64,000 nucleotides of DNA, taken from Chloroflexota bacterium. GTDB taxonomy: Bacteria > Chloroflexota > UBA11872 > VXNJ01. The position numbers and the translations under genes were made by a program. Of the stretch, positions 34,971 to 54,235 are shown piece by piece (position 1 is the first letter of the stretch; the number at the start of each line of letters is the position of its first letter). The notes beneath the pieces were generated by a model. The model was not told the origin of the DNA and ran no database searches. It worked only from the letters and a program-made list of their open reading frames with translations. The stretch is taken from contig JAPOWW010000001.1 of assembly GCA_026707405.1 (NCBI GenBank), positions 192,136 to 256,135 of the forward strand. The letters run 5' to 3'.

Positions 34971-35104
34971 TGTTTCGCGATTGCGGCGCTGAGACTGGCG
35001 GCATTTGGCAAAATCGACCAAAATCACCGGTGTCATCTTTCTGGGCTCATTAGTGGAGCATTTTTCAGCATGACGATCTGGCTGACGAAAGGCGCGCGGC
35101 GCTG

Positions 35105-36790: not shown

Positions 36791-37548
36791 TGACGGAACA
36801 ACGACTCGGACTGCGGATCATCAGGTACGATCCCGAAACGTACGACAGCTCTGAAACGCGTGAATATGAAGTTCCCACGAGAGATTCCCTGACCCTTCTC
36901 GACGCCCTGGTATCGATACACGAGGAACAGGACTCGTCCCTGGCGATTCGTTACTCCTGCCGGGGCGGGTTCTGCGGAGCCTGCGGGGTACAGGTCAACG
37001 GCCTGCCCGTGCTCGCGTGTCGAACACGCGTATCGTCCCTCGATTGCAACGGGTCCCCCGTCGAGATAGCTCCCTTGCAAAACCATCCGGTTATCCGGGA
37101 CCTCGTCGCCGACTTCGATCCCACCTTCCTGACGCTCGGGGCGGGGGAGCCCTGGATTCAATCCGATGAAGGATCGCCGGGGAGCGGCATGGACTCGGAC
37201 ATGACGCAGGAGGAGGTTGACCGTCTGGGACGGTCCCAGGCGTGCATTTCCTGCGGCCTTTGCGATGCGGCCGTGCCCCACGCACATGTGTCGGCAGGCT
37301 TCGTCGGCCCCGCAGCGCTCGTTCGGGAGTTCCGGTTGGCGGCTGACGTGCGCGACGGCTCCGACCGCGACCGCCTCGAACGGGTCAACACGAGCGGCGG
37401 AATTTGGGACTGCGATCCCGACAATTCATGGGACGACGCGTGCCCCGTTGGAATAGACCCGGCAAACAAGATCGAGCTGCTTCGCGAAGCTTCGATTGCA
37501 AACAAGATCGGCGGTCGCAAACGGGTCGAGTCCGAAACGGCCGCGTAG
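36787..37548 (+). CDS. sdhB: Succinate dehydrogenase/fumarate reductase iron-sulfur subunit-like protein, with degenerate [3Fe-4S] ligands
   Basis: The [2Fe-2S] motif CRGGFCGACG...C is intact. The second motif is CISCGLCDAAVP (CxxCxxCxxxVP, with the fourth Cys replaced by Val). The third motif is CDPDNSWDDACP (the middle Cys replaced by Trp). The start overlaps the sdhA stop (ATGA). Confidence 0.8.
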   Translation: MMTEQRLGLRIIRYDPETYDSSETREYEVPTRDSLTLLDALVSIHEEQDSSLAIRYSCRGGFCGACGVQVNGLPVLACRTRVSSLDCNGSPVEIAPLQNHPVIRDLVADFDPTFLTLGAGEPWIQSDEGSPGSGMDSDMTQEEVDRLGRSQACISCGLCDAAVPHAHVSAGFVGPAALVREFRLAADVRDGSDRDRLERVNTSGGIWDCDPDNSWDDACPVGIDPANKIELLREASIANKIGGRKRVESETAA

Positions 37549-37613
37549 ACCAATGCAAATGAGCGCGGACAGGCGTGTTGGCCCCGGTATTGGAAGATTG
37601 ATGCGGAGGAAGT

Positions 37614-38543
37614 TTGGCACGCACTAAGGTAACCGTCGCCGGCGCGGGGCAGACCGGGGGATCTATCGCCCGTCGGGTAGCCGAGAGAGGTTATGCCGAC
37701 GTCGTGATGATCGACGTGGTCGAGGGGTTTGCCGCTGGCAAGGCGCTCGACCTCAATCAGACCGGCCCGCTGATGGGGTATCCACCGAACCTGATCGGCT
37801 CGACGGGCTATGACGAGTCCGAGGACTCCGACATCTGCGTGATTACGTCGGGGTTTCCGCGGCAGCCCGGAATGTCGCGCGACGACCTCCTGCTGAAGAA
37901 CAAAGAGATCGTCGAGGACGTAGCGGGCAAACTGGCAGAGAAGTCTCCCGACTGTAAGTTCATCGTACTGACCAACCCGGTCGACGCCATGGCCCAGCTC
38001 GTCCATTCCGTCACGTCGTTTTCCAAGGAGCGCGTGATAGGACAGGGCGGCATTCTGGATTCGGCGCGATATCGGACGTTCATCGCCTGGGAACTGAGCG
38101 TGTCGCCTCAAGACGTGTCGGGATTCGTTCTCGGAGGGCATGGGGACGCGATGGTGCCGGTGCCTCGTTACACGTCCGTGGCGGGCGTCCCTGTCGGCGA
38201 GCTGCTGCCCCAGGACCGTTTGGATGCCATTATCCAGCGGACGCGGGACGGGGGAGCCGAGATAGTAAAGCTCCTGCAACGCGGCAGCGCTTACGAGGCT
38301 CCGGGCGAGGCCGTGATGCTGATGATCGATGCGATTGTCTTGGACCAGAAACGGCTATTCCCATGCTCGGTCCTGCTCGAAGGCGAATATGGGATAAGCG
38401 GCACGTTCGTGGGAGTGCTGGTGAAGCTGGGGGCGCAAGGCTACGAGGGGCTGATCGACGTTTCCTTGACTGAGGAAGAGCTTGCTGCTTTACATAAATC
38501 TGCGGACGGCGTGCGCGAACTCGTGGAGATAATGGGCGTCTGA
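37614..38543 (+). CDS. mdh: Malate dehydrogenase (LDH-like, NAD-dependent)
   Basis: KVTVAGAGQTGG is the Rossmann motif. The catalytic LGGHGD and the substrate Arg are present. Length is 309 aa. Confidence 0.85.
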   Translation: MARTKVTVAGAGQTGGSIARRVAERGYADVVMIDVVEGFAAGKALDLNQTGPLMGYPPNLIGSTGYDESEDSDICVITSGFPRQPGMSRDDLLLKNKEIVEDVAGKLAEKSPDCKFIVLTNPVDAMAQLVHSVTSFSKERVIGQGGILDSARYRTFIAWELSVSPQDVSGFVLGGHGDAMVPVPRYTSVAGVPVGELLPQDRLDAIIQRTRDGGAEIVKLLQRGSAYEAPGEAVMLMIDAIVLDQKRLFPCSVLLEGEYGISGTFVGVLVKLGAQGYEGLIDVSLTEEELAALHKSADGVRELVEIMGV

Positions 38544-38635
38544 CCGCGACTCCCGACAGATAAAATCGAACGGTCCCTTGATTACCGGTCGCGGCTCGGT
38601 TGGTTACGATCCCGCAATGCAAAGGATACGAATTG

Positions 38636-40048
38636 ATGGCAACACGCACTGAGCGCGATCCGCTCGGCGAAGTCGAGGTCCCGTCCGAAGCGCTTTACGG
38701 CGTTCAGACTCAGCGGGCGGTCGATAATTTCCCAATCTGCGCAATAGGTCCGCATCCGGCGTTCGTCTGGGCGACGGTGCTCATCAAGAAGGCGGCGGCC
38801 GTTACGCATCGTGAGACGGGGCGCCTGGACCCGAAGCTTGCCGACGCGATTATCCAGGCGGCGGACGAAGTGCTGGACGGGCTGCACGGCGATCAGTTCG
38901 TGGTGGACGTTTTCCAGGCCGGAGCCGGCACGTCGCACAACATGAACGCGAACGAATTGCTCGCCAATCGCGCAAATGAGCTGTTGGGCGGTTCGCGCGG
39001 CGACTACGATCCCGTGCATCCCAACGACCACGTAAACATGGCGCAGTCGACCAACGACATCATCCCGACCGCCATCGCGCTAGCCGCGCTGCATCTCTTG
39101 CAGCCGCTGTACGAGGCGCTTGACGAACTAGCCGATTCGCTGGAGCAGAAGGCGCAGGATTGGGACGGGATCGTCAAGTCGGGCCGCACGCACGTGCAGG
39201 ACGCCACCCCAGTCCGCCTCGGGCAGGAGTTCGGGGCCTATGCAGTCGCCGTGCGACGCGGCCGCGAGCGAATCGCGGCGGCGGAAGTAGATGTCCAGGA
39301 GCTGAGCGTCGGCGGGACCGCCGTGGGAAGCGGTCTCAACGCGGAGCCTCGGTATCAAGAGCGGGTGGTCGAGGTGCTGGGCGAGCTGAGCGGATTGACC
39401 GTACGGCGGTCGGAGAATCTGTTCTACTCGATGCAGAGCATGTCGCGGTTCGCGATGCTATCGGCGGCGCTCAAGGCGCTGGCGGTCGACCTGGGCAAGC
39501 TGGCCAACGACATCCGCCTGCTGGGATCGGGACCACGCACGGGGATATCCGAGCTCAGGCTGCCGGCGGTCCAGCCGGGATCGTCGATCATGCCGGGCAA
39601 GGTCAACCCGGTGATGGCCGAGTGCCTGAACATGATTTGCTTTCAGGTGTTCGGAAACGACCTCGCCATCACGATGGCGGCGGAGGCCGGGCAGCTTCAG
39701 TTGAACGTGATGATGCCGGTGATAGCCCACAACCTCTCGCAATCGATCGACATCCTGGCGAACGGCTGCAAGCAGTTCGACGAGCTTGGCGTGCGCGGTC
39801 TGGAGCCGGACAGAGCGATGATCCGACACTGGCTGGAGCGCAATACGATGTTGGCGACCGCTCTAGCTCCAAGGATCGGCTATGCGGCGGCAGCTGAAAT
39901 CGCCAAGGAAGCGGTACGGACAGGTGAGAGCATCCCGGATGTCGCTGGACGCATGACCGATCTGTCAGAGGACGAATTGGCTCAGGCGCTGGATCCCGCG
40001 CCGATGACCGAGGCCGGCATTCGCGCCGGTGGTGGAGGCGGCGGCTAG
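38636..40048 (+). CDS. fumC: Class II fumarate hydratase (FumC)
   Basis: The GSSIMPGKVNP signature is present. An SD sequence AAGGA lies 11 nt upstream of the ATG at 38636. The C-terminus carries an unusual Gly-rich tail (GGGGGG). Confidence 0.85.
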   Translation: MATRTERDPLGEVEVPSEALYGVQTQRAVDNFPICAIGPHPAFVWATVLIKKAAAVTHRETGRLDPKLADAIIQAADEVLDGLHGDQFVVDVFQAGAGTSHNMNANELLANRANELLGGSRGDYDPVHPNDHVNMAQSTNDIIPTAIALAALHLLQPLYEALDELADSLEQKAQDWDGIVKSGRTHVQDATPVRLGQEFGAYAVAVRRGRERIAAAEVDVQELSVGGTAVGSGLNAEPRYQERVVEVLGELSGLTVRRSENLFYSMQSMSRFAMLSAALKALAVDLGKLANDIRLLGSGPRTGISELRLPAVQPGSSIMPGKVNPVMAECLNMICFQVFGNDLAITMAAEAGQLQLNVMMPVIAHNLSQSIDILANGCKQFDELGVRGLEPDRAMIRHWLERNTMLATALAPRIGYAAAAEIAKEAVRTGESIPDVAGRMTDLSEDELAQALDPAPMTEAGIRAGGGGGG

Positions 40049-40096: not shown

Positions 40097-41581
40097 CTAC
40101 CAGGGCCAGGCTTGCGGTTCGCCGGTGTCCATGTCGAGCGTCCAGGCCTCAAACGACCGTCTGATTAGCTCGTTGCGAATCGGGTCTCGACCAGGCTCAA
40201 GCCAAAGATCGTCGAACTCATGTGGGTCGTTATGGAGATCGAAAAGCTCGCCCAATCCGGCGCCGTGATAGCAAACTAGCTTCCAGCGCTCGTCGCGGTA
40301 CATCGTTGCGTAGGCGGGTATTCCTTCCGGGGAATGGTAGAAGTACTCGCATCGCACGAACTCCTTGTGATGATCAGGAGACGCGCCGCCGGTGAGAATA
40401 GGCAGCAGCGACCGTCCCTGAACGTGGGCGGGAACCGGCAGACCGGTGATCTCCAGAAGCGTCGGCACGATATCCACAAGCTCGACTAACGCGTCGCTCT
40501 TCAGTCCCGCCTTCGCTCCGGCGGGAAAGGACCATAGCAAGGGCACTCGCACAAGTCCTTCGTAAAACCTCGCTCCCTTCATCACAAGCCCGTGGTCGCC
40601 CAGCGCCTCGCCATGGTCGCTGGTGAAGATGATGACGGTGTTCTCGCGAAGACCGGCCGATTCGAGCCAGTCCAGCAGCCGTCCTATTTCGTGGTCGATA
40701 AGCTCGATCATCGCGTAGTAAGCGGCTTTTAGCTGGCGGGCTCTGATCACGTCGAGCGGGTACGGTCCCACGGCAAATGGGACTTGCGCTAAACGCTCCT
40801 GCCGGTGGAGATCGCTATCGCGAAAGGGGGGATCGCTCAACGTCTCCGGCGGATAACGCTTGTAGTAGTCCCAGGGAGGATCCGAGGGAGGATGCGGGTC
40901 GAACGCATTGACGCTGAGGAACCAGGGGCGCTCGCGGGGCTGGGATATGAACTCGATAGCCTTATCGGTACACCACCTGGTCTGGTGCAGCTCCGGCGGC
41001 GCATTATCCGAACCGGGCGTGGGTACCTTTAGTCCAGCCCATCCGTTTTCAGGAGTTACCACCCTCAAACCGGGCGAGTCGTATGTGTCGATTGCGTCAA
41101 CGGGATCGTGGCCCTGAAGCCGTACCCATTCGAGGTATGAATCGCCATCTGGCCAGTACCGATAGGGCATGTGGCTGTATTGGAAATAATCGAAGCCGTC
41201 GTCGCGGCGGTTCTCGGGTCCGTTGTGCGCGCCTGCCAAGTGCAGCTTGCCGATCAGACCGCAGTCGTAACCGGCGTCGGACATGATACGGCTTATGAGT
41301 TTGTCGACAAGGCTCGCGGGGTAGGTCTCGCACCCGTTGCGAATGACGTGATTGGCGCTCGGGTACATTCCGGTCAAGAAGCTGGCACGGCTCGGCGTGC
41401 AGACGGGGTTCTGGCAATAGGCATGGGTGAAAGCCGCGCCCTCGGCCGCCAGCCTGTCGAGATGGGGCGTGCGAATCTCGGAATTGCCGAGAGCGGCTAT
41501 TGTGTCAAAACGCTGCTGATCGGTGCAATACAGCAGTATGTTCGGACGCTCGTTAGGGCCGCCTTGCCCGGAGACTGCCAC
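40097..41581 (-). CDS. Cys-type sulfatase (arylsulfatase family S1)
   Basis: The CTPSRASFLTGMY formylglycine motif (C-x-P-x-R) is present, with the N-terminal metal-binding PNILLYCTDQQRFD. Confidence 0.9.
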   Translation of the reverse strand: MAVSGQGGPNERPNILLYCTDQQRFDTIAALGNSEIRTPHLDRLAAEGAAFTHAYCQNPVCTPSRASFLTGMYPSANHVIRNGCETYPASLVDKLISRIMSDAGYDCGLIGKLHLAGAHNGPENRRDDGFDYFQYSHMPYRYWPDGDSYLEWVRLQGHDPVDAIDTYDSPGLRVVTPENGWAGLKVPTPGSDNAPPELHQTRWCTDKAIEFISQPRERPWFLSVNAFDPHPPSDPPWDYYKRYPPETLSDPPFRDSDLHRQERLAQVPFAVGPYPLDVIRARQLKAAYYAMIELIDHEIGRLLDWLESAGLRENTVIIFTSDHGEALGDHGLVMKGARFYEGLVRVPLLWSFPAGAKAGLKSDALVELVDIVPTLLEITGLPVPAHVQGRSLLPILTGGASPDHHKEFVRCEYFYHSPEGIPAYATMYRDERWKLVCYHGAGLGELFDLHNDPHEFDDLWLEPGRDPIRNELIRRSFEAWTLDMDTGEPQAWPW

Positions 41582-41652: not shown

Positions 41653-42543
41653 CTATCCCTTGATTCCCGTCAGAGTAACGCCCTGCGTGAAATAGCGCTG
41701 CGCAAAGCCGAATACGACCACCATGGGCGCGACGGAAGCGAAAGCCGCGGCCATCATGAGGTTCCAGAACTGGATGTCCTCGCCCGTCGCGTCGATCATG
41801 GCGCTGAGGGCGATGCTTATCGTCCACTTCGTCCTGTCGGTCAGAAAGACGAGCGGGTAGAGGAAGTCGTTCCAGACGTTGGCAAACGCGAATATGCCGA
41901 TGGCGATCAGCACCGGCCTTGACAACGGCACCATGATCTGCCACCAAATCCTGAACTCCGACGCGCCATCGACCCTCGCGGCGTCGGAGAGCTCCTGTGG
42001 GATCGTTCGATAGAACTGCCGGACGAAGAAAATGAAATAGGGCGTGCCGAAGAAAGCCGGCACGATCAACGGCAGGAAGGTGTTGACCCAGTTCATCCAC
42101 TTGAAGAGCAAGAACGTCGGTAGCAGTCTGACCGCCAGCGGAACGATCATCGTGCTGATCATGACTATGAAGAGGAAGTTCCGTCCTGGCGCGCGCAGCC
42201 GTGCAAAACCGTAAGCGACGAAAGAGGCCGACAGAACATCACCGACGATCACGAGCGCTGAGATCAGCGTCGTGTTGAAGAAGTATTGATGGAACGGCAG
42301 GAAGGTTAGCGCCTCAACGTAGTTCTGCCATACGACCGGACTGGGTATGTAGACGGGCGGGAAGCTCTCAACCTGGGTCGCTTCCTTGAGCGAAGTCGAC
42401 GCCATCCACAGGAACGGCAGGGCGAAGATGAACGCCACAATGAGAAGAACAAAATGGATGGCGGCGTGGCGCCCCACTCCGGGCGCGGACTGGAATAGTC
42501 CGCGCCGGACGTGCGTGGCGATTACCGCGACTCGATCACTCAT
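41653..42543 (-). CDS. Carbohydrate ABC transporter permease (MalG/UgpE-like)
   Basis: 6 TM helices and the EAA-like loop (LSDAARVDGASEFRIWWQIMVP) are present. Confidence 0.85.
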   Translation of the reverse strand: MSDRVAVIATHVRRGLFQSAPGVGRHAAIHFVLLIVAFIFALPFLWMASTSLKEATQVESFPPVYIPSPVVWQNYVEALTFLPFHQYFFNTTLISALVIVGDVLSASFVAYGFARLRAPGRNFLFIVMISTMIVPLAVRLLPTFLLFKWMNWVNTFLPLIVPAFFGTPYFIFFVRQFYRTIPQELSDAARVDGASEFRIWWQIMVPLSRPVLIAIGIFAFANVWNDFLYPLVFLTDRTKWTISIALSAMIDATGEDIQFWNLMMAAAFASVAPMVVVFGFAQRYFTQGVTLTGIKG

Positions 42544-43466
42544 GTCTCGTAGTGCACCCAGTGCCGGCTTGTGCCGAACGTAATTCCGGTTACGGCGAGC
42601 ACCAAAACGAACAGCACCGTCGCCATGGCCGACGCGTAGCCCATCTCAAAGTTCTTGAAGGCGTAACGGTAGAGATAGAGGACGTAGAAGAGCGTCGAAT
42701 TCAAAGGCCCGCCCCGCGTCATGATGTACGCGAAGGTGAAAACCTGGAAGTGCGTGACGAGACCGATTACGAGTAGAAAGAAGGTCGTAGGACTGAGCAT
42801 CGGGATCGTTACGTGCCACATGCGCCGCAGGACGTTGGCCCCGTCGATGGACGCCGCTTCGTACAGGTGGGTCGGGATGTTCTGCAAGCCCGCCAGCATG
42901 ATCACCATCGTCTGACCGACATACCAGAACGAGAGCAGAATTATTCCGGGCTTTGACCAGTTCTCGTCTTGAAACCAAAGCGGGCTTGGAATTCCGAATA
43001 CGTCCAGAAGGTGCTTCACTACCCCCAGCTCAGCGTGCAGCAGCCACAAGAAAATCACCGAAGCGGCGGCGTGCGGCACGATCATGGGGAGATAGAACAG
43101 CGTTCGGTAGGCGCCTCTGCCATGAATACGGGTGTTGAGGAACATCGCGAGCGTGAACGCGATCAAAAGCTGTCCGGGCACGGATATCACGACGAAGTAG
43201 ATGGTATTGAGCAGCGTGATGGTGAAAAGGCGGTCGTCGGTGAAGATGCCGACGTAGTTTTCCAGCCCAACCCATTGCGGCGCCTTGAAGACGTTGTAGC
43301 GCGTGAAGCCGAGATAGAAGACGGCCACGATGGGGCCGGCGGTAAACACCAGGAACCCCAGCAGCCACGGCGAAAGGAACGTATAGCACCAGAGGGCCTC
43401 TCGCCGGCTTGCCGAGAGGCGGACCTTGCCGCCGGCCTGAGGCGCGGAAGCGTCTACAGTCGCCAT
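42540..43466 (-). CDS. Carbohydrate ABC transporter permease (MalF/UgpA-like)
   Basis: 6 TM helices and an EAA loop (YEAASIDGANVLRRMWHVTIP) are present. The gene overlaps the downstream permease by 4 bp. Confidence 0.85.
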   Translation of the reverse strand: MATVDASAPQAGGKVRLSASRREALWCYTFLSPWLLGFLVFTAGPIVAVFYLGFTRYNVFKAPQWVGLENYVGIFTDDRLFTITLLNTIYFVVISVPGQLLIAFTLAMFLNTRIHGRGAYRTLFYLPMIVPHAAASVIFLWLLHAELGVVKHLLDVFGIPSPLWFQDENWSKPGIILLSFWYVGQTMVIMLAGLQNIPTHLYEAASIDGANVLRRMWHVTIPMLSPTTFFLLVIGLVTHFQVFTFAYIMTRGGPLNSTLFYVLYLYRYAFKNFEMGYASAMATVLFVLVLAVTGITFGTSRHWVHYET

Positions 43467-43588: not shown

Positions 43589-45142
43589 CTAGCCTCGCTG
43601 CTCCCACCACTTGTCGACTTCTTTCTGGGACTCGGTGGCGCCCCATTCGACGGCATCCTCGGGCGTGCGCTTGTGCAGCAGGGCCTCTTCCTGCATCTGA
43701 ATCGTGATATCGTTCAGCTTCTCTTGAACTGGCGATGCCGGGGAATGGACACTTAGATCCATTACTTCAAGCGCGAGTTTCCATTCGTCCGGGAAATTCT
43801 CGCCGAAGCGCGGGTCCTTATTGAATTCCTTAACCGGCGACGGTCTGACCTGTGCGATAAAGAACTCGCGGTTGCCCTCGTCGGTCGTGGTCCATTTGAG
43901 AAACTCCCAGGCCCCGTCGGGGTTCTTTACCCCAGTGGGCATGGCGTATCCCCACCCGCCTTCGATCATGTATTGGGTCTTGGCCGCCGGATTCCGGTCG
44001 TTGTAAGGAACGTGGGCGACTCCCCAATCGACGTCGGGAGCCTGAGCTCCCATGATCAGGAACATCCAGATACCGTCGAAAAGGCTCGACACCTTGCCTT
44101 CGAGGAAGGAGTTGCGGAATGCCGAGCCTCCGCTCACGATTGGCCGCACATTCTCGAATCCGCCGTAGGTGGTGTCATAGAAATCGACGAGCCAACGCAG
44201 CGCGCCCTTGCCCTCGTCCGAGTTGTAGAGCACCTGCTTACGGTCGGGGCTGCTGATGCGTCCGTTGTTCATAAATGTCCACGCGCGGAACCAGTAGTTC
44301 GAGCGGACACCGCCGAGCAGCGGATCGACGCCGACTCGCTCCACCTTGTCGCCATCGAGCACCGTCAGCTTTTCCGCCGCTTCTTCCAACTCGCTCCACG
44401 TTTGCGGCTGCATGTCGGGATCGAGGCCCACTTCCTGTGCTTGGGCTTTATTCCAGAAGAACAGGTTCACATTGGTGCTCGTGGAAAACGGAGCGGCGAA
44501 CATCTTGCCGTCCCAGGTGTAGACGTCGACCTCGTAGTCGAACCAGGTGTCCTTGGAAATGTTGTCGATTCGCAGCAACTCGTCGAGCGGCGTCAGCACG
44601 CCGTTGTCGGAGAATGCTACAAGGTGACGCTGGCCGTGGAGCATGATCACGTCGGGCGGATCGCCGCCGGCGATCGCGGTGAGGTACTTCTCGTCCATAC
44701 CTGTTTGCGAGATGAGCGTATGGCGGACTTTGATCTGGGGGTTAAGCTCCTCGAATCCCGCCACCTGGTCCTCGATCAGGGGCAAGCGGGGACCGCCCCA
44801 GACGTGCCAGTAAGTCACCGCCTGAGCCTTGACCATGGGCGCGGCTTCCCGAACAACCTTGGTGACGACTTTCTCGACGACCGTCTCTTTTTCGACTTCG
44901 ACGACCCTCTCGACCTCTACGACTTTCTCGACTTCCTTTTCGACCTCGACGGGGACTTCCTTGACGACCTCCCTGGTCACGACCCGCTCGACCGGCACCT
45001 CCTTGGTGACGACCTCGACGACCCGCTCGGTGACCGTCTGCACCTCGCCGCATCCGGCGATTGCAGCCGTGGCGAGTCCCAAACCGCCCGCCGATCCGGC
45101 AAGAAACCTGCGCCGCAAGATCTGGTTTCGCGAGTTCATCAA
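43589..45142 (-). CDS. Extracellular solute-binding lipoprotein (family 1 sugar SBP) with an N-terminal V/E/K-rich repeat tether
   Basis: A Tat/lipoprotein-type signal (RRRFLAGSAGGLGLATAAIAGC) is followed by about 60 aa of (V/E/K/T)-rich imperfect repeats, then a periplasmic-binding fold. Confidence 0.8.
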   Translation of the reverse strand: MMNSRNQILRRRFLAGSAGGLGLATAAIAGCGEVQTVTERVVEVVTKEVPVERVVTREVVKEVPVEVEKEVEKVVEVERVVEVEKETVVEKVVTKVVREAAPMVKAQAVTYWHVWGGPRLPLIEDQVAGFEELNPQIKVRHTLISQTGMDEKYLTAIAGGDPPDVIMLHGQRHLVAFSDNGVLTPLDELLRIDNISKDTWFDYEVDVYTWDGKMFAAPFSTSTNVNLFFWNKAQAQEVGLDPDMQPQTWSELEEAAEKLTVLDGDKVERVGVDPLLGGVRSNYWFRAWTFMNNGRISSPDRKQVLYNSDEGKGALRWLVDFYDTTYGGFENVRPIVSGGSAFRNSFLEGKVSSLFDGIWMFLIMGAQAPDVDWGVAHVPYNDRNPAAKTQYMIEGGWGYAMPTGVKNPDGAWEFLKWTTTDEGNREFFIAQVRPSPVKEFNKDPRFGENFPDEWKLALEVMDLSVHSPASPVQEKLNDITIQMQEEALLHKRTPEDAVEWGATESQKEVDKWWEQRG

Positions 45143-45173: not shown

Positions 45174-45506
45174 CTACTCTTTCAAGACCAGATAGATAAT
45201 CACTTTGACCTCTGGATCGGAGCCGTCTAGGTCCGCGCTGAGGCGGAGCCATCCTCCAAACTCCCGGAGCTTTATCGAGTAAAGTCCTTCCTCGCGCATG
45301 ACGGGCAGCTCGGTCCCCTCGTCGATCCAAAACATGCCGTCCGGCGAAATCTGCACTCGCGCCCTAAGCTCGGCGCCTTGTCTGATGCTCAGGATTCGCA
45401 CGAACCATCTGGCTTCCGACGCCCAGGCGCACTCGTGAGGCTCGGTGTCGAAACTCGAAGTGAAGACCGAGTTTCGTTCGACTACCGCGGTGTGGGACGT
45501 TCTCAC
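45174..45506 (-). CDS. Hypothetical protein (110 aa), no recognisable family
   Basis: The ORF is same-strand and tightly spaced within the SBP / unknown / HIBADH operon. Its composition is protein-like. No motif match was found by eye. Confidence 0.4.
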   Translation of the reverse strand: MRTSHTAVVERNSVFTSSFDTEPHECAWASEARWFVRILSIRQGAELRARVQISPDGMFWIDEGTELPVMREEGLYSIKLREFGGWLRLSADLDGSDPEVKVIIYLVLKE

Positions 45507-45511
45507 GCTCG

Positions 45512-46465
45512 CTACCAGTCGGCCGAAATCAGCAACGAATCGACGTACAGGAAATTGCGAACCGGCACCCGCGTACGCACGTTGATCTCAAGATTCAACA
45601 AACGGGCGAGCCCCCAATACGGAGAGTCGTGCACGGGTACAGGGATGTCGCGAAGGTCCATGACCTTGTCGTTGACCTGAAGCTCGACGTTGCGGCCCCT
45701 GCCGATGTCAAACACCCACCGCAGGTAGTGCCAGTTCACTTTGGACGGAATCTCGTTGTAGCAGAGCGGCTGATATCCGTCAGGAACATCCTCCCAGTCG
45801 GCCGGGTCCTGCACCTGGAAGTCCTCGAGCGGATGCTCAAGGTAATCGTCGGGGAACATGTCTCTGATCGTCCTGCGCGTTACCTGCAGCGACGTTTTGT
45901 ATTTCCAACGCCGAATCAAGTTGCCCTGAGCATCGGCGTTGACGTAGCGAAGCGCGCAGTGAGTTCGCCGTCCCTCGTCGTCGATTTGAATGTCGTTACC
46001 GATCATGATGTCGCCGAACTGCGCTTCCGAGGGATGGTAGTTTCCATCCCATTCCCGTCCGCCTTCGGGCACCGGCTCGAAGTTCCATTCGGACTTGTAG
46101 CTGAAGTACATCTCCATTTGCACCGGCCCAAGGTCTTGCCACGTGAGTCGCTTGCACAGTACCGCCATATGGTCGGGAACGGGCCGGGTAGCAGCCTTGA
46201 GGGCGTATGTACCCGACATCGGCCCGTGCGTGCCCTGGTCGAAGTACGTGCACGTGCTCAACTGGGCGGGATGAAAGTCACGGACGTAGCGAGCCATGTT
46301 GTCGAGATTTCCGTCTGTGTTGCCGATCAGCTCGCACCAGCCGTTGACGCCGTTGTCGAAGTCGTCGAAGCACAGGATTCGCGGGAGGGGATTGAACTTG
46401 CTCAGCTTCGGATCGGCCCGAAGCAACGCCAGCCTGAGGGCGTCTGCATCGATCACTCGGCGCAC
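45512..46465 (-). CDS. Hypothetical protein (317 aa), no recognisable family; candidate enzyme of the sulfatase locus
   Basis: A well-behaved ORF, Trp/Asp-rich and predicted beta-rich, sits between the HIBADH-like gene and the SBP gene on the same strand. No motif match was found by eye. Confidence 0.45.
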   Translation of the reverse strand: MRRVIDADALRLALLRADPKLSKFNPLPRILCFDDFDNGVNGWCELIGNTDGNLDNMARYVRDFHPAQLSTCTYFDQGTHGPMSGTYALKAATRPVPDHMAVLCKRLTWQDLGPVQMEMYFSYKSEWNFEPVPEGGREWDGNYHPSEAQFGDIMIGNDIQIDDEGRRTHCALRYVNADAQGNLIRRWKYKTSLQVTRRTIRDMFPDDYLEHPLEDFQVQDPADWEDVPDGYQPLCYNEIPSKVNWHYLRWVFDIGRGRNVELQVNDKVMDLRDIPVPVHDSPYWGLARLLNLEINVRTRVPVRNFLYVDSLLISADW

Positions 46466-46533
46466 CTCCCGCCTTCAAGTCGTTGGGGCTGCGAAAGTAG
46501 CGCACACTCCTCCAAGAATGTCAAGCAAGAATG

Positions 46534-47433
46534 TCAAGCGCTGAGCTCTACTCCCGCGACCTCCTCCCAAAGCCTTACCGCAGAGGTGAAGTTCTCCTCA
46601 CCGAAACCCTTGGCGGTCGATGCCGTGAACATCTGTTGAGTCACGGCGGCGTAAGGGGTTATAGACCCAATCCGAGATGCAAGCTCAGTCCCCAGGCGGA
46701 CGTCCTTCAAAGCGTGGCGAGTGAGAAATCCGGGCTTGAAGTCGCGCTCGAAGACCGAGCCTTCGAATACGGCTTCGAGCGACCTGTTCCAGACGACCGT
46801 CTTTCGGAACAGGTCGACCATGAAACCGATGTCCAGGCCAGCCTTGGCGCCCAGCGTCAGAGCCTCGGCGTCGGCCAGGATGATCGTAAACGCGAGCATG
46901 TTGTGGATCAGCTTGAGCGTCGACGCGGTCCCGAGCGGGCCGCAATATACGATCTCCTCGCTTAGCCGGTCCATGACGTGACGAACTTCATCCAGATCGG
47001 CCTCGTCGCCGCCCGCCAGGAGCCGCATGGTGGCGTTCTCGGCATCACGCGAAGAGCCGGTTATCTTGCACTCAAGCATTCGCACATCCTCCAGGCGAAG
47101 GCGCTCGGCAACGCGCAAGGTGGTGTCGGGGTCTACGGTGCTGAGGTCGATTAGCATCCGTGGCGGCTCTTGGGCACTCGCAATTCCGTCTTCACCGGTG
47201 ACGGCGTCATCCAGATGCTTGGGTTCAGGCAGCGCGGTCATCACGTAGTCAGTCTTCTCCGCCGCAAGTCTGGGCGAGGCCGCCGCCCTGCCGCCGGCCG
47301 CGGCCAGCTTCCCGGAGCGCTCCGATACGAGATCGAACCCAACAACGTCATGGCCTGCCTTCAGAAGGTTCTTGGCCACGCCGGAGCCGATAGCTCCGAG
47401 GCCGACAAAGCCGATGGTGAGACTCCGTTCCAT
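46534..47433 (-). CDS. NAD(P)-dependent 3-hydroxyisobutyrate dehydrogenase-family reductase (tartronate semialdehyde / sulfolactaldehyde reductase-like)
   Basis: IGFVGLGAIGSGVAKNL is the Rossmann motif, and the catalytic Lys lies in the GTASTLKLIHNM region. The longest ORF begins at 47457; the start is placed at the internal Met (MERSL). Confidence 0.8.
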   Translation of the reverse strand: MERSLTIGFVGLGAIGSGVAKNLLKAGHDVVGFDLVSERSGKLAAAGGRAAASPRLAAEKTDYVMTALPEPKHLDDAVTGEDGIASAQEPPRMLIDLSTVDPDTTLRVAERLRLEDVRMLECKITGSSRDAENATMRLLAGGDEADLDEVRHVMDRLSEEIVYCGPLGTASTLKLIHNMLAFTIILADAEALTLGAKAGLDIGFMVDLFRKTVVWNRSLEAVFEGSVFERDFKPGFLTRHALKDVRLGTELASRIGSITPYAAVTQQMFTASTAKGFGEENFTSAVRLWEEVAGVELSA

Positions 47434-47457
47434 TACTGCAAGCTCCTGCAAGGGCAA

Positions 47458-47582: not shown

Positions 47583-49151
47583 TTGCGGCGCGCCCGCCGA
47601 GTCGAGAGGCCGTCTTCCGTGACGAGTAGCGCCCGGCCCAACATCTTGTGGTACTGCACCGATCAACAGCGTTTCGACACGATCGGCGCGCTCGGCAATC
47701 CACACGTGCATACCTCCAATCTCGACCGGCTGGTGGAGGGGGGCGTTGCCTTCACCCACGCGTATTGTCAGAGTCCTATCTGCACACCCAGCCGCGCCAG
47801 CTTTCTAACCGGGATGTACCCGAGCGCGCTCCACGTCCACAGCAACGGGTCGCTGTACTTCCCCAGCGAACACACAATGGTGACCCGAATGCTCGCGGAC
47901 TCGGGCTACGACTGCGGCCTGGTTGGGAAGCTTGGGCTGGCGAACGGCGACGGCGCCGGAGAACCGCGGGTCGAAAGCGGATATCGATACTATGAATATT
48001 CCAACGGCCCGAAGGTGGGGCGGTCCAATGGCAACGATTATCTGAGGTGGATTCGTGAGAAAGGGCTTGATCCTGTCTCGATCCTCGGTCCGCCGTCGGA
48101 CATCGAACGATACGACCGCGCCGCATTTGCGGGATTCACGTCGAGCCTGCACCGCGGCGGACTGAAGTTGCCGACGCCCGACAAAGACAACGCGCCCGTC
48201 GCCCATCACCAGACGACGTGGTGCACGGAAAAGGCCGTCGACTTCATCTCGGAATCGCAGTTGTCCGACCAACCGTGGCTGCTGTCGGTAAACCCGTTCG
48301 ATCCTCACCCTCCGTTCGATCCGCCGTGGGAGCACTTCCGCCGGTTCGACCCGGAGACGATGCCCGGACCGCATTTCAGGGAGAGCGACCTGGGCCAGCA
48401 AGAACGCTTGAAGAACATCGACTTTCAGACCAAAGCCCGCAACCCGGAGGAATTTGACGCCCGCTCGGTACAGGCCGCTTACTACGCGATGATCGAGCTA
48501 ATCGACGATCGGCTTGGCGCCATTCTGGACGCCCTGGACGAGACCGGTCAGCGCGAGCGCACTGTAGTGGTGTTTACAACCGATCACGGCGAGGCCCTGG
48601 GAGATCACGGACTGTTGCTGAAGGGTTGCCGATTCTACGAAGGGCTTGTGCGGGTGCCGCTGATATGGTCGTGGCCGGGACACTTCAGCGCGGGATTGCG
48701 CAGCAACGCGCTGGTCGAGCTGTTAGACATCGCGCCTACACTGCTGGACCTGGCCGGACTCTCGATTCCGGAACGAATGCAGGGACGGAGCCTTCTGCCG
48801 GTTCTCGGCGGCAGGGCCGATCCCGATGAGCACAGGGATTTCGTCCGAAGCGAGTATTACGACGCGCTGCCGCTTCCCGATGGAACCATGGCGACCATGT
48901 ACCGCGACCGGCGATGGAAGCTTGTCGTGTATCACAGCCACGGTTTCGGGGAGCTGTTCGATCTGCAAGTCGATCCGCATGAGTTCGAGAATCTATGGGA
49001 CGATCCGGCGTGCCAGGCGGTGCGGGAGGACCTCTTACTCAAGTCCTACGACGCCTCGGTGATGGCCATGGACTGGGGGCCGCCGCTGGTTCAGAAGTAT
49101 GAGGACCGGCCAGCCTTTCGGCGGCCGCTGGGCAGGTGGGGCCGGAGATAG
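47583..49151 (+). CDS. Cys-type sulfatase, paralogue of the 40097-41581 gene
   Basis: CTPSRASFLTGMY and PNILWYCTDQQRFDTIGALGN are near-identical in motif to the first sulfatase. It is divergently transcribed from the ABC operon. Confidence 0.9.
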   Translation: MRRARRVERPSSVTSSARPNILWYCTDQQRFDTIGALGNPHVHTSNLDRLVEGGVAFTHAYCQSPICTPSRASFLTGMYPSALHVHSNGSLYFPSEHTMVTRMLADSGYDCGLVGKLGLANGDGAGEPRVESGYRYYEYSNGPKVGRSNGNDYLRWIREKGLDPVSILGPPSDIERYDRAAFAGFTSSLHRGGLKLPTPDKDNAPVAHHQTTWCTEKAVDFISESQLSDQPWLLSVNPFDPHPPFDPPWEHFRRFDPETMPGPHFRESDLGQQERLKNIDFQTKARNPEEFDARSVQAAYYAMIELIDDRLGAILDALDETGQRERTVVVFTTDHGEALGDHGLLLKGCRFYEGLVRVPLIWSWPGHFSAGLRSNALVELLDIAPTLLDLAGLSIPERMQGRSLLPVLGGRADPDEHRDFVRSEYYDALPLPDGTMATMYRDRRWKLVVYHSHGFGELFDLQVDPHEFENLWDDPACQAVREDLLLKSYDASVMAMDWGPPLVQKYEDRPAFRRPLGRWGRR

Positions 49152-49178: not shown

Positions 49179-50351
49179 GTGATGGGAGCACAGAGACGAC
49201 CGACGATCACCCGAATCGAGGCCGTTGAGTTCTTCGTGGAGTTGGAGAATCTGGGGATGACGCCCGACGGCTGCGAAATGCAATATCAACCGGGCGAAAC
49301 GCTGCGGGCCATGCGCTACGCGCTCACGATCGATTCCGATGCGGGCGTGCGAGGAGAGTTTGTCGGTCGAAGACCGGAAAGCTACAACCAGCTACAGCGA
49401 GTGGCCGGGAGGATGCTAGGGCGAAGCGCTCTCGACCGCGAAGGGATTTACGGCGAATTGAAGCGCCAGTTCAGGGCGACGATCAATTTGGCCGTGGCTC
49501 CCCTCGATATCGCGCTTTGGGACCTCGCGGGCAAGCTGTACGGAGCGCCAGTCTACGAATTACTGGGGGGCAGCGACCGTCCCCTGCCGGCATACGCCAG
49601 CACCCACTTCGGGGACGCCAGCGGAGGACTTGACAGCCCCGAGGCGTTCGCCGATTTCGCGGTCCGCTGCAAGGAGATGGGCTATCCCGCCTTCAAGATA
49701 CATAGTTGGGGCGCTCCCATCGAGAGGGAAGTGCGGCTGGTGACCACCGTCCGCGAGGCAGTAGGCGACGGAATGCAGCTCATGCACGATCCGGGCTGCA
49801 CGTACCGGACGTTCCTCGAAGCCTTGACCGTGGGTAAGGCGCTCGACGAGGCGAACTACCTCTGGTACGAGGACCCTTACATGGACGGCGGCATGTCGGC
49901 GTTCGGCAACAAGAAGCTGAGAGAGCTGCTCCGAACTCCAATAATGATTACGGAGCATATCCGCGGACTGGAGCAGCACGTGGACGTGATCGTCGCCGGT
50001 GGAACAGACCTCGTGCGGGTCGACGCGAACCTGGATGGCGGGCTGACGGGGGCGCTCAAAATCTGCCACGCCGCCGAAGGCTTTGGGTTGGACGTCGAGA
50101 TACACTCGCCCGGCCCGGCGCACCGGCACCTTATGGCGTCGATCCCCAACTCGAACTACTACGAAATGTCACTGGTCCACCCCAAGGCGCCTACTCATAA
50201 CGGAAAGGCGTACCTCGACTACGAGGACGAACTGGAGTCCATCGACGCCAACGGATGCGTATCCGTACCGACTGGACCGGGCCTGGGCGTGTCGATCGAC
50301 TGGGACCTTGTAAGCAGGAACCAGACCGGCGGGTTCTTGTTCGAGGCGTAG
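49179..50351 (+). CDS. Enolase-superfamily enzyme (mandelate racemase / muconate-lactonizing family, probably a sugar-acid dehydratase)
   Basis: An N-terminal capping domain is followed by a TIM barrel carrying metal-ligand-like acidic residues (LMHDPG, YEDPY, the KIHSWG region). It lies 27 bp after the sulfatase gene. Confidence 0.7.
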   Translation: MMGAQRRPTITRIEAVEFFVELENLGMTPDGCEMQYQPGETLRAMRYALTIDSDAGVRGEFVGRRPESYNQLQRVAGRMLGRSALDREGIYGELKRQFRATINLAVAPLDIALWDLAGKLYGAPVYELLGGSDRPLPAYASTHFGDASGGLDSPEAFADFAVRCKEMGYPAFKIHSWGAPIEREVRLVTTVREAVGDGMQLMHDPGCTYRTFLEALTVGKALDEANYLWYEDPYMDGGMSAFGNKKLRELLRTPIMITEHIRGLEQHVDVIVAGGTDLVRVDANLDGGLTGALKICHAAEGFGLDVEIHSPGPAHRHLMASIPNSNYYEMSLVHPKAPTHNGKAYLDYEDELESIDANGCVSVPTGPGLGVSIDWDLVSRNQTGGFLFEA

Positions 50352-50801: not shown

Positions 50802-51935
50802 GTGACCGCGCTGTCACCGAGCGGCGATCCGTGGTTGCTGACTCCGGGGCCGCTCACTACCTCACCGGAAGTAAAGGAAGCGGCGCGGCACGACTACGGA
50901 TCTCGCGATCACCGCTTCATCGACATCAACCGGCGAGTGCGCGAGCGTCTCGTCGACGTCGTGGGCGGGCACGATACTCACGTCTGCATTCCGCTCCAGG
51001 GCAGCGGCACGTTCGTGGTCGAGGCCATGCTCGGCTCTTTTGTCCCCCGTGACGGCAAGCTGCTGATCCTCGTCAACGGTGCCTACGGCCGGCGGATGGC
51101 GAAGATCTGTGAGGTAGCGGGCCGTCGCAGCGTCCTGGTGGAGACGGGAGAGGACGTGCCCAACGACCCGCGAGCGCTCGACCGCGCGCTGGCGGGCGAC
51201 GCAGGCGTATCCCACGTGGCGGCCGTCTATTGCGAGACTACCTCGGGCATCCTGAACCCCATCGAGGCGATCGCCCGCGTCACCGCACGCCACGGCCGTG
51301 GTCTTCTCATCGACGCCGTGAGCGCCTTCGGAGCCCTGGCTCTCGACACGTGCACGGTGCGCTTCGACGCGATGGCAGCTTCTTCCAACAAATGCCTTGA
51401 GAGCACGCCGGGCGTGGGCTTTTGCATTGCACGGCGCGGGGCCCTCGAGCACAGCGCCGGCAATGCCCACTCGCTCAGCCTCGACCTGCGAGACCAGTAC
51501 CTCGCGATGGAGAAGGACGGTCAATGGCGTTTCACCCCACCGGTCCAGGCCATTCTCTCCCTCGACCGTGCTCTTCATGAGTTCGAGGCCGAGGGCGGCA
51601 CCGCGGGACGCGGCGCGCGCTACCGGGAGAATCTGCACGTTCTGGTGGAGGGCATGCGCCGGCTCGGCTTCGAGACCCTGTTGCCGGACGCCGTGCAGGC
51701 GCCCATCATCGTCACCTTCCACATGCCGGCCGATCCGCGTTTCGCGTTCGAGGCGTTCTACGAGCGCTTGCGGCGTCGGGGCTACGTCATCTATCCCGGC
51801 AAGCTCACTGCCGCCGCCTCCTTCCGCATCGGTTGCATCGGTCGCCTCGGGGTAAAGGAGATGCGCGGCGCCCTCGCCGCGGTAGAATCCATCCTCGATG
51901 AAATGGGAGTCAAGAGTGGCGCGCCCGCCGGATGA
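50802..51935 (+). CDS. phnW: 2-aminoethylphosphonate--pyruvate transaminase
   Basis: The N-terminal LLTPGPLTTS hallmark is present. The class V aminotransferase fold is present. phnX lies directly downstream. Confidence 0.8.
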   Translation: MTALSPSGDPWLLTPGPLTTSPEVKEAARHDYGSRDHRFIDINRRVRERLVDVVGGHDTHVCIPLQGSGTFVVEAMLGSFVPRDGKLLILVNGAYGRRMAKICEVAGRRSVLVETGEDVPNDPRALDRALAGDAGVSHVAAVYCETTSGILNPIEAIARVTARHGRGLLIDAVSAFGALALDTCTVRFDAMAASSNKCLESTPGVGFCIARRGALEHSAGNAHSLSLDLRDQYLAMEKDGQWRFTPPVQAILSLDRALHEFEAEGGTAGRGARYRENLHVLVEGMRRLGFETLLPDAVQAPIIVTFHMPADPRFAFEAFYERLRRRGYVIYPGKLTAAASFRIGCIGRLGVKEMRGALAAVESILDEMGVKSGAPAG

Positions 51936-51959
51936 CAGGCGGTCCGGGCCTCGGCATCA

Positions 51960-52832
51960 TTGGCAAAGCAACGGAGACAGGAATTGGCCCTAAACGGCGA
52001 CTTCGTTTTCAACCGCAGCTACCGCGGCAGGGTCAAGGCCGCGATCCTCGACTGGAGCGGCACAACCGCGGACGCCTACGTGCTCGCTCCCGCGGTGGTG
52101 TTCGTCGACGTGTTCAGGAAGCACGGAGTCGAGATCACGATGCCGGAGGCACGGGGGCCGATGGGCCTGCGCAAGGACCTGCACATCAAGGCCCTCACCG
52201 AGGTGCCTGAGATCGCCGAGCGCTGGGAGGGTGTGCACGGCAAGCGCCCGGGCCAGGCGGAGGTCGATGCGATGTTCGCCGACTTCGTACCGATGCAGAT
52301 CGCCTGCCTGCGCGAGTACACCACCCTGCTGCCCGGAGTCGCCGAGACCACCCAGCGCCTGCAGGCGGAGGGGATCAAGCTTGGCAGCACCACCGGCTTC
52401 GTGCGCCCGATGGTGGATATCCTGGAAGCGGATGCGAAGAAGCAGGGCTACGTGCCCGATGCCTCCGTGGCCGGCGACGAGGTGATCAACGGCGCCCGTC
52501 CCAAGCCCTTCATGGTCTACCGCAACCTCGATCTCCTCGACGTGCACCCCATCCAGTCAGTGGTCAAGGTCGACGACACCGTGACGGGGGTGGGCGAAGC
52601 ACTGGAGGCGGGCTGCTGGGGGGTGGGCATCGCACGCTACAGCAACTATATGGACATCGACAGCCTGGAGCACGCAGAGAGCCTCTCGGAGGCGGAGATG
52701 CAACGCCGGCTCGCGTACACCCGGGAGATCCTGATCAAGACGGGCGCCCACTACGTCATCGACACACTCGACGAGCTGCCGGCAGTGATCGACGATGTGA
52801 ATGCCCGCCTAGCGAGGGGTGAGAGGCCCTAA
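51960..52832 (+). CDS. phnX: Phosphonoacetaldehyde hydrolase (phosphonatase, HAD family). The probable true start is near 52032.
   Basis: HAD motif I is ILDWSGT. Motif III/IV are present (GSTTGF..., VKVDDTVTG). The first roughly 24 aa of the longest ORF are probably not translated. Confidence 0.8.
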   Translation: MAKQRRQELALNGDFVFNRSYRGRVKAAILDWSGTTADAYVLAPAVVFVDVFRKHGVEITMPEARGPMGLRKDLHIKALTEVPEIAERWEGVHGKRPGQAEVDAMFADFVPMQIACLREYTTLLPGVAETTQRLQAEGIKLGSTTGFVRPMVDILEADAKKQGYVPDASVAGDEVINGARPKPFMVYRNLDLLDVHPIQSVVKVDDTVTGVGEALEAGCWGVGIARYSNYMDIDSLEHAESLSEAEMQRRLAYTREILIKTGAHYVIDTLDELPAVIDDVNARLARGERP

Positions 52833-52914
52833 CGGCGGTACGCTTTCCTGCGGCGGCGGCGCGGCTGGAGCGAACGCCAATGGCGCCCGTGGGAGTTCCG
52901 TCAGATAGACGCCG

Positions 52915-54070
52915 TCATCTGAGCCATGGGCCGTAGCGACCTTCCCTGGAATGCGCGAGGATGCCTTCGTCGAGAAGCGGCTCCACGAATTCCGGGGCGT
53001 AGCGGGTAGCCCGGTAGACATTGACATATTGATCGCCGAAGAACGGCGAGTAGTAGTCCCAAACCACGTCGCCCTCCATAGTTACTTCGAAGATGCGACC
53101 GCAGTCCGCTTCGCAAATGAGCGTGTTGCCGTTGGGGAGGCGCTGCTGTCCCGCCCTAAACGGGCTGAAGAAGCCTTCGGGGTCGCTGTATTCCCAAAGG
53201 AAGTCTTCCGGCTCGCGGGGGTCGAATTCCAAGACCCTGGAATATCCGCGTAGAGTGCCGTTGTCGAAGAGCAGGATATTGCCATTGGGGAGCATCTGAG
53301 GCTGATGCTGCCTCGAGCACGCCGATTCCCCACGCCCAGACGATCTCGCGGGAGTCGCTATCGACGACCGAGATGATGTCGATGCATCGGTGGCTGAGCA
53401 GGTAGTTCCCGGCCCGGAATCGCTTGTCGGCGCGTCCGACCGGCGTGTCGGGCAGGACGGTGAGCGTGTTGGTGTGCGACCAGTCAGCGGCGGGTCTCGG
53501 CAGCTCCAGACCGGCAAGATCCACCAGCTCGTCGACGTGGTCGCTGAGCCACCATTCCCAATGGACGAACGTCTTGCGGTCGACTTTCATTATCAGATCG
53601 TCCTCGACGGGACCTCGCGGGAATATGTCGGGGCGGTCGCGGTCGCGTTGGTACAACGTAAGAAGCGTGCCGTCGTCGAAGCGGTGAAAGTCGTGATGAA
53701 CCCGCCCGTACCACGCCCAGGTGACGTTTCCCTCAAAGTCCGACTCGAACAGGCCGCCGAAGCATCGATCGCGGTCCTCGTTCCAATCCGTGAAGTTGTC
53801 CCAGAACAGGCTGCCGTCGCTGTCGAGCTCAGCCCACTGGCTCCTGACGACGGGCCAGGTGTGAACGACCCGGCCGTTCATGTCGATGAGGTATTCGGTG
53901 TAGCCGAATGCCGGCGAGAAGAGCGTGTAGCCGGGCCAGGCGCGGGCGCGGTCCCAAACACGGACTCCACGGAGTCCGTTGTCGACGCGCGGAGGCAGCG
54001 GCGCGGGGAGTTCGCCGTAATCTCGCGGGGGATTCCCTCCAACTTCCGACTTTGACTGCTCTGTCCCCAT
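52915..54070 (-). pseudogene. Arylsulfotransferase (ASST)-like beta-propeller protein, interrupted by a frameshift near 53325
   Basis: Two overlapping minus-strand ORFs (53156-54070 and 52915-53517) are each protein-like only on one side of about 53325. The recurring blade motif (LPNGNILLFDNG, LPNGNTLICE) continues across the frame change. The shift coincides with a CCCC run. Confidence 0.5.
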
Positions 54071-54235
54071 GGTGCGACCTCTCCGACCGGCTGACTAGTC
54101 GAACGCGAGCTGGACTCATTATGAGCGATTCCGAGCCTGCCGGGCAGCCGTAAGGCCAGAGGCGGCGCTCATCCATCGCGGCGCTGCAGCCGCATTGGCA
54201 AGATAGACTAATTGTCGTTCACAAGGAGCTTGACG

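Follow-up and report, generated by a model that had tools for sequence, protein, structure and literature searches.

A 64,000-nucleotide stretch of DNA from a Chloroflexota bacterium (GenBank assembly GCA_026707405.1, contig JAPOWW010000001.1, positions 192,136 to 256,135 of the forward strand; hereafter, the window) carries two adjacent minus-strand genes encoding proteins of 317 and 110 amino acids (aa), the first a member of the family DUF6772 and the second its small partner. We describe here how this gene pair is conserved, the genes that accompany it and the predicted folds of its products, and we weigh the possibility that it specifies an enzyme working on sugars or sugar acids that have just been imported. 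The two genes are the following:

45512..46465, minus strand: DUF6772 protein gene, 317 aa (open reading frame and sequence; Pfam PF20562)
45174..45506, minus strand: small partner gene, 110 aa (open reading frame; DUF6385-like, sub-threshold; jelly-roll model)

Both open reading frames start with GTG, the start of the 317-aa frame being preceded by a GGAGG 8-9 nt upstream, and both are genuine, conserved genes with the coordinates and tight spacing that an earlier sequence-only reading of the stretch had described. That reading placed the gene for a solute-binding protein (SBP) about 30 bp downstream of the pair, which agrees with the 31 nt (TTG start at 45142) or 34 nt (ATG start at 45139) counted here, whereas the gap of 6 bp that it gave between the two genes has to be corrected to 5 nt from the DUF6772 stop to the partner start. 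It had also described the larger protein as rich in Trp, Asp and Tyr, in line with its composition (W10, D33, Y14). The two proteins are acidic and soluble, neither shows a signal peptide or a hydrophobic segment in hydropathy analysis, and a cytoplasmic location is predicted for both.

The 68-nt spacer between the stop codon of the preceding HIBADH-type reductase gene and the DUF6772 start contains a 13-nt unit, CTTGACATTCTTG, present twice in tandem (46513-46538, minus strand) and holding a perfect TTGACA hexamer within each copy. The first copy overlaps the HIBADH stop codon and a TACTTT hexamer lies 19 nt past the second. On these features the tandem site could be an internal promoter or operator; it went unflagged by the promoter scan because the spacer limit of that scan is 18 nt.

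Regarding family assignment, the 317-aa protein is a full-length DUF6772 member by profile comparison: it scores 364.9 bits against PF20562 (cut-off 27, E 3.4e-109), with residues 13-317 aligned to positions 3-284 of the 284-position model. The 110-aa protein is likely a remote relative of DUF6385 (PF19912), with a score of 20.7 bits that falls below the 26.8 cut-off (E 4.5e-4), and several of its orthologues bear a precomputed PF19912 label. Both families are catalogued as domains of unknown function and carry no functional information, which leaves the two proteins without a recognised functional family. The two DUFs were the only matches in Pfam (E<=10), NCBIfam, PHROGs and PDB sequence and profile searches, which returned no characterised relative. 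The view that the proteins have no recognisable family is thus incorrect for the larger one, and no characterised family matches either of them. A phage or defence origin was rejected, as no significant PHROGs match was obtained and all genomic contexts are catabolic or transport operons.

Database searches at E<=1e-3 returned 697 homologues of the larger protein and 166 of the smaller one (4,698 for the latter with a profile query). Identity is typically 50-60% across about ten phyla, with Chloroflexota, Actinobacteria, Acidobacteriota, Verrucomicrobiota, Planctomycetota, Spirochaetia, Firmicutes and Proteobacteria among the carriers, and these figures bear out the expectation that both genes are conserved in relatives. 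In a collection holding one genome per species, DUF6772 is encoded on at least 579 matched stretches. A profile search covering 1.84 billion representatives clustered at 50% identity gave 277 DUF6772 matches, nearly all of the family forming a single full-length cluster, alongside numerous fragments and a dozen or so divergent full-length subfamilies (283-321 aa); extra domains, multidomain forms or a fusion to the partner were found in none of the 277. Upstream extensions of some DUF6772 reading frames were considered as fused domains and rejected, since they lack any Pfam match and correspond to stop-free read-through in GC-rich DNA.

In the DUF6772 alignment 53 columns are invariant, and many of these are polar. 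Every subfamily retains K90, K105, R106, E118, D158, R167, R173, Y174, N176, N237, K242, Y247, D253, R303, D309 and S310, a strongly polar and mostly basic set with seven basic, four acidic and two Tyr positions. The exact C-termini are conserved as well, ending in ...VDW or ...DW in the large protein and in ...LKE in the small one. A few homologues begin with a twin-arginine (Tat)-like extension (MKRRGFLHGAMALGA...), which might have indicated a periplasmic location; it was set aside as ambiguous, its hydrophobic core being short and its cleavage site unclear. Extensions of this kind, 15-25 residues long and of the twin-arginine-like form M(K/Q/N)RRGFLHGAMA..., are seen in P0067, P0071, P0087 and L089 (8001-8100). 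If the extension were a real Tat signal, the signal-less partner might, quite uncertainly, be co-exported as a hitch-hiker.

The most consistent property of the two genes is their pairing. Custom hidden Markov models of both proteins were scanned against 86 related loci and the window, and in all 87 both genes are present on the same strand. In 77 of the 86 loci the distance from the DUF6772 stop to the partner start is -8 to +20 nt, and in 10 of these the two overlap. There are seven exceptions, apparently all from Opitutaceae or other Verrucomicrobiota (L051, L066, L071, L072, L073, L075 and L084), in which the partner lies approximately 1.2-9.2 kb downstream in the same locus. The genes intervening there include one for a large beta-helix/GH141-like protein, and translational coupling ties DUF6772 in these loci to a GFO/IDH/MocA dehydrogenase gene and an ACS-type MFS transporter gene lying upstream.

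The pairing extends to a divergent DUF6772 subfamily (33-38% identity, about 295 aa) carried on plasmids of Chelatococcus, Terrarubrum, Rhizobium and Roseomonas. Both loci of this subfamily that were examined (Chelatococcus and Terrarubrum) encode a homologous 111-aa partner (E 1e-32 to 1e-34) whose start overlaps the DUF6772 stop. These divergent pairs reside on alphaproteobacterial megaplasmids (L087, Chelatococcus daeguensis pTAD1; L088, a Terrarubrum plasmid; also H3 and H5-H7), in a conserved operon with a GntR regulator gene followed by MR_MLE, two permeases, DUF6772, partner and SDR, plus two divergent SBP genes. Since the pair is kept at 33-38% identity, the association must be older than the split of the subfamilies. 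Such an ancient pairing, together with translational coupling, argues for a stoichiometric complex of the two proteins, which we infer from sequence comparison and gene layout.

AlphaFold2 models both proteins as all-beta, with a pLDDT of 88.5 and a pTM of 0.89 for the large protein and a pLDDT of 95.9 for the small one. The large model retrieved L-type lectins (Emp46p/Emp47p), legume lectins and GH16 members with Foldseek (E about 1e-5, probability 1.0), and it is predicted to be a concanavalin-A-like lectin/glucanase beta-sandwich. This prediction agrees, at the level of the fold, with the idea of a beta-sandwich that had been put forward for the 317-aa protein. In this regard, its N-terminal strand motif DDFDxGxNGW resembles the usual first strand of the concanavalin-A-like superfamily. 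No match to GH16 was obtained for the 317-aa protein in Pfam (E<=10); beta-jelly-roll polysaccharide lyases such as PL7 gave no Pfam match either, and no lyase is present in the top 50 Foldseek matches. The catalytic set of such lyases is Arg/Gln/His/Tyr, and the DUF6772 residues shared by all subfamilies include Arg, Tyr and Lys. The small model, predicted to be a generic jelly-roll, is closest to XepA (6i56; TM 0.69, root-mean-square deviation 2.9 A), followed by PirA, GOLD, CBM and TNF/C1q-like domains.

The second constant feature is nearness to an uptake system. A transporter is encoded within four genes of the pair in 71 of the 86 loci and an oxidoreductase in 48; in 69, the directly adjacent co-directional gene is either a transporter or a NAD(P)/FAD oxidoreductase gene. 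The transporters belong to CUT1 ABC systems in Chloroflexota, Spirochaetia and Alphaproteobacteria, and to Opp/Dpp-type ABC systems in Actinobacteria; an SSF symporter lies directly upstream of the pair in Bryobacterales, an ACS-type MFS transporter ('D-galactonate transporter' subfamily) occupies that place with a GFO/IDH/MocA dehydrogenase in Opitutaceae, and TonB receptors are found nearby in several loci. The oxidoreductases are SDR, Zn-ADH, GFO/IDH/MocA, AKR, HIBADH, GMC (at times with a Gluconate_2-dh3 subunit) and DAO enzymes, and the regulators are of the LacI, GntR or IclR type. In many operons the pair is the only non-transport product, together with an Opp-type ABC system in Actinobacteria or an SSF symporter in Bryobacterales. 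Besides the pair itself nothing is constant across the loci, and a pooled Pfam scan of 127 unannotated neighbours revealed no recurrent partner enzyme (none appeared more than three times) and no recurrent classical glycoside hydrolase. In two Acidobacteriota loci (L047, 8280-9863, and L040), a GMC oxidoreductase, a Gluconate_2-dh3 small subunit and a BD-FAE-type esterase precede the pair; the first two reproduce the layout of membrane-associated FAD sugar dehydrogenase complexes.

Taken together, these surroundings point to carbohydrate or sugar-acid catabolism as genomic context. The narrower suggestion of the sequence-only reading, a link to sulfated sugars, is not a property of the pair: a sulfatase is encoded within 8 kb in only 11 of the 86 loci and an MR_MLE enzyme in 3. 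Two cytoplasmic S1 sulfatases accompany the pair in the window operon and in its close relatives L004 and L007, and sulfatases also occur near it in unrelated lineages (Paenibacillus, Phycisphaerae, Opitutaceae, Bryobacterales, Occultella and L089). In L089 a 1182-aa FGE-sulfatase fusion is encoded directly downstream of the pair, and a DUF1080 gene lies 4 bp upstream of DUF6772. Pairs 55-60% identical to that of the window occur in operons without any sulfatase.

A more defined clue to the substrate comes from one subset of loci. In Devosia, Tagaea, Rubrivivax and an alphaproteobacterial metagenome-assembled genome (MAG), the pair sits between SBP and permease genes, which are followed by an AKR and then by an Amidohydro_2 enzyme; a Zn-ADH comes next in Tagaea and Devosia. 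The closest solved relatives of the AKR are L-galactose dehydrogenases, and the sole solved relative of the Amidohydro_2 enzyme, 4dlf/4dnm/4do7, is presumably the L-fucono-1,5-lactonase BmulJ_04915. The trio of AKR, Amidohydro_2 and Zn-ADH would match the L-galactose pathway of Bacteroides vulgatus. The clues from solved relatives of neighbouring SBP, MR_MLE, AKR and Amidohydro_2 proteins thus point to an L-galactose/L-fucose-type oxidative pathway for this subset only, and to nothing general.

In the window itself, the pair belongs to a minus-strand operon in the order HIBADH-type reductase, pair, SBP, two permeases and S1 sulfatase, and two further genes of interest are transcribed divergently:

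46534..47457, minus strand: HIBADH-type NAD(P) oxidoreductase (Pfam NAD_binding_2 and NAD_binding_11), co-directional with the pair and upstream of it
43589..45142, minus strand: CUT1-type solute-binding lipoprotein (Pfam SBP_bac_1) with a Glu/Val-rich linker
43466..42540 and 42543..41653 (span 41653..43466), minus strand: two ABC permeases (Pfam BPD_transp_1)
40097..41581, minus strand: S1 sulfatase with CTPSR motif and without signal peptide (Pfam Sulfatase and SGSH_C), last gene of the operon
47583..49151, plus strand: second sulfatase, divergent, with CTPSR motif and without signal peptide (Pfam)
49179..50351, plus strand: enolase-superfamily (MR_MLE) enzyme, divergent (Pfam)

The Pfam assignments confirm that the pair is placed between the HIBADH-type reductase gene and the transporter genes. 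The reductase gene is probably the first of the operon, with a promoter-like site ahead of it at 47554-47526, and its product resembles tartronate-semialdehyde and sulfolactaldehyde reductases in NCBIfam, below the cut-offs. The SBP has MBP1 (4r9f) as its nearest solved relative (E 5e-38). It carries a twin-arginine-like signal with a lipobox (RRRFLAGSAG...AGC) and, at residues 35-100 approximately, a linker of about 65 residues that consists almost entirely of Glu/Val/Lys repeats (VVEVVTKEVPVERVV...) ahead of the SBP_bac_1 domain. The nearest solved relatives of the MR_MLE enzyme are 1rvk and 4hcd (E 3e-48). CTPSR is the formylglycine motif of S1 sulfatases, and since both sulfatases lack a signal peptide, desulfation is expected to take place in the cytoplasm; no FGE or anaerobic sulfatase-maturase gene was found among the annotated neighbours.

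Beyond the operon, a run of tricarboxylic acid cycle genes (29348-40048) lies immediately upstream of the sulfatase island, encoding aconitase, isocitrate/isopropylmalate dehydrogenase, succinyl-CoA ligase beta and alpha subunits, a succinate dehydrogenase/fumarate reductase flavoprotein and class II fumarase. Past the MR_MLE gene, at 50802-55120, are genes for a class-V aminotransferase, a HAD hydrolase, an arylsulfotransferase-like protein (weak Pfam match) and a PhyH-family dioxygenase, perhaps additional genes for metabolising sulfur esters or organosulfur compounds; an Opp-type ABC system comes next at 56540-62333. The gene set of this 50802-62333 region is also present in L004. Among public sequences, a Chloroflexota MAG (OZ244593.1) comes closest to the window, sharing its gene order at 95% protein identity. 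In L004, a relative with 95% identity, the downstream sulfatase and the fumarase at 14879-17410 are called as several short fragments (SGSH_C, 161 aa; Lyase_1, 129 and 88 aa), which suggests frameshifts or assembly errors in the contig rather than true pseudogenes.

The findings described above allow us to propose a model in which the pair is a cytoplasmic two-subunit, cofactor-independent enzyme that processes a carbohydrate or sugar acid right after its uptake, a reading to which we assign a probability of roughly 40%. The DUF6772 protein and its jelly-roll partner would assemble in the cytoplasm as a hetero-oligomer and carry out the first post-import step, transforming or cleaving the solute that the neighbouring uptake system brings in. 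The reaction would rely on acid/base chemistry of the lyase, hydratase or hydrolase type in the cleft of the sandwich, and the product would be passed to the adjacent NAD(P)-dependent oxidoreductase. As for the substrate, it would probably be acidic or anionic in some other way, whether a sugar, a sugar acid or a small glycoside. An anionic ligand of the sugar or sugar-acid kind is suggested by the predominance of conserved Lys and Arg residues and, among the neighbours, by ACS-type transporters for sugar acids, GntR/FadR regulators, MR_MLE enzymes and sulfatases. In the window, the pathway might handle sulfated sugars or sugar acids through ABC import, the two cytoplasmic sulfatases, the pair, the HIBADH-type reductase and the enolase-superfamily dehydratase.

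Several observations weigh against this model. The 86 loci are phylogenetically non-independent, many coming from Nonomuraea, Bryobacterales and marine Chloroflexota. The neighbouring enzymes vary greatly from locus to locus, and a single substrate is therefore hard to name, and the loci without a nearby oxidoreductase make the proposed transfer of the product to a reductase or dehydrogenase less convincing. With respect to the protein itself, the TM-scores of the large-model Foldseek matches are low (0.35-0.5, at about 10% identity) and the top matches are non-catalytic lectins; the window protein has no catalytic motif of a known family, and the ExDxxE motif of GH16, which it lacks, occurs in just 4 of 53 aligned sequences; and the conserved basic residues behind the anionic-substrate idea are placed by sequence, not in three dimensions. 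A literature search on the DUF6772 and DUF6385 names returned nothing relevant.

A bolder version of the same model is more doubtful. It would make the pair an unrecognised two-subunit family of carbohydrate-active enzymes, for instance a non-Koshland lyase/hydratase or a glycoside-cleaving enzyme, acting on an acidic or L-galacto-configured sugar and filling a missing and widespread post-uptake step in at least 579 species-representative genomes from about ten phyla.

The alternative that survives best, although unlikely, holds that the pair is a non-catalytic, lectin-like carbohydrate-binding complex serving cytoplasmic ligand binding, sensing or chaperoning of the imported solute, or modulation of the pathway. 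It would account for the lectins (Emp46p/Emp47p and legume) at the top of the structural matches of the large protein, for the likeness of the small one to CBMs and TNF/C1q-like binders, and for the absence of any recognised catalytic signature in the pair. However, charged residues are conserved across subfamilies in such number and to such a degree as would sooner be expected of an active site, and dedicated regulators of the LacI, GntR and IclR types are already present in these operons. Moreover, occurrence with five unrelated transporter classes and in catabolic operons, often as the sole non-transport genes, fits an enzyme better than an accessory binder.

Somewhat less probable again is a mutarotase, pyranase or isomerase that readies the anomer or ring form of an imported monosaccharide, such as L-galactose or L-fucose, for the first dehydrogenase. 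RbsD/FucU, RhaU/RhaM and GalM provide this function in other transport operons, and mutarotase genes inside ABC operons have precedent. In line with this notion, the operon of Devosia, Tagaea, Rubrivivax and the alphaproteobacterial MAG encodes an L-galactose-dehydrogenase-like AKR together with Amidohydro_2, and the SSF and MFS neighbours suggest substrates of monosaccharide size. Known mutarotases, however, are single small proteins, and neither protein matches GalM aldose 1-epimerase, RbsD/FucU or RhaM in Pfam (E<=10) or NCBIfam; an accessory anomerase makes little sense as the sole enzyme of the operons of Actinobacteria and Bryobacterales that hold only transporter and pair, and a highly constrained two-subunit protein is elaborate for a reaction that also runs spontaneously.

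Enzymes dedicated to the sulfated-sugar pathway defined by the sulfatases of this operon are improbable, given that the two cytoplasmic S1 sulfatases joined to the pair in the window, L004 and L007, and the recurrence of sulfatases in several unrelated lineages, are set against their presence in a small minority of loci and against the close relatives of the pair in sulfatase-free operons. On these data, a step that cleaves or transforms the solute as soon as it is imported is more likely than one specific to sulfated sugars. The probability left beyond the proposed enzyme and these three alternatives falls to other functions.

The obligate pairing of DUF6772 with the small partner and its systematic link to uptake systems seem to be undescribed in the searchable literature. 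The large protein is unusually conserved, at 50-60% identity from Chloroflexota to Actinobacteria, Acidobacteriota, Verrucomicrobiota, Spirochaetia and Proteobacteria, and in soil bacteria, marine bacteria and those associated with sponges the two always occur together, with uptake systems beside them. If the pair is an enzyme, it would constitute a new carbohydrate-active family that fills a gap in oxidative sugar and sugar-acid pathways left blank by annotation pipelines, and would allow a better reading of sulfatase-rich loci in marine Chloroflexota; if it merely binds ligands, its interest is lower. The question is directly testable, as culturable carriers are at hand (Devosia enhydra, Paenibacillus thalictri, Kribbella, Nonomuraea and Chelatococcus). 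In Devosia enhydra ATCC 23634 the operon runs in the order GntR, SBP, pair, permeases, AKR, putative lactonase and Zn-ADH. We therefore regard the pair as a well-defined, testable target for enzyme discovery rather than as a surprise in itself.

Comparison with known systems helps to place these proteins. The best structural matches of the large AlphaFold2 model are L-type lectins (Emp46p/Emp47p, ERGIC-53), legume lectins and GH16 members; unlike these concanavalin-A-like lectins and glucanases, which are secreted or lumenal, the DUF6772 protein is predicted to be cytoplasmic and is 70-100 residues longer. In the case of the 110-aa model, XepA (6i56), PirA (3x0t) and the p24 GOLD domain (5gu5) are the best matches, but no sequence relationship to it was found and their biology is that of phage lysis, a toxin and a cargo receptor, respectively; the matches reflect a common generic fold.

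With regard to gene organisation, the two-subunit C-glycoside deglycosidases (DgpB-DgpC / CarB-CarC), which act after a GFO- or GMC-type glycoside 3-oxidoreductase, likewise combine a large catalytic protein with a small subunit, encoded side by side and near GFO/GMC oxidoreductases and sugar transporters. Their catalytic subunit is a metal-dependent xylose-isomerase-like TIM barrel, not a beta-sandwich, and no homology to the pair was detected, the resemblance being organisational only.

The DUF1080 enzymes differ from the pair in acting as single proteins without a dedicated small partner, and many DUF6772 loci have no nearby oxidoreductase. Sequence and profile comparisons found no homology between DUF1080 and DUF6772, and a remote relationship to PF06439 was rejected (hhalign probability of 0.7% against the DUF1080 protein of L089, and no Pfam match). 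In other respects they set a mechanistic precedent for what is predicted for DUF6772: a concanavalin-A-like sandwich that works independently of cofactors, with genes for sugar transporters and for GFO/IDH/MocA or GMC oxidoreductases beside it. DUF1080 proteins, which have the concanavalin-A-like fold, were shown to act together with GFO-type dehydrogenases as 3-keto-glucoside 1,2-lyases and glucal hydratases, and variously built operons and distant similarity were anticipated by the authors who described them (bioRxiv 10.1101/2024.03.25.586180).

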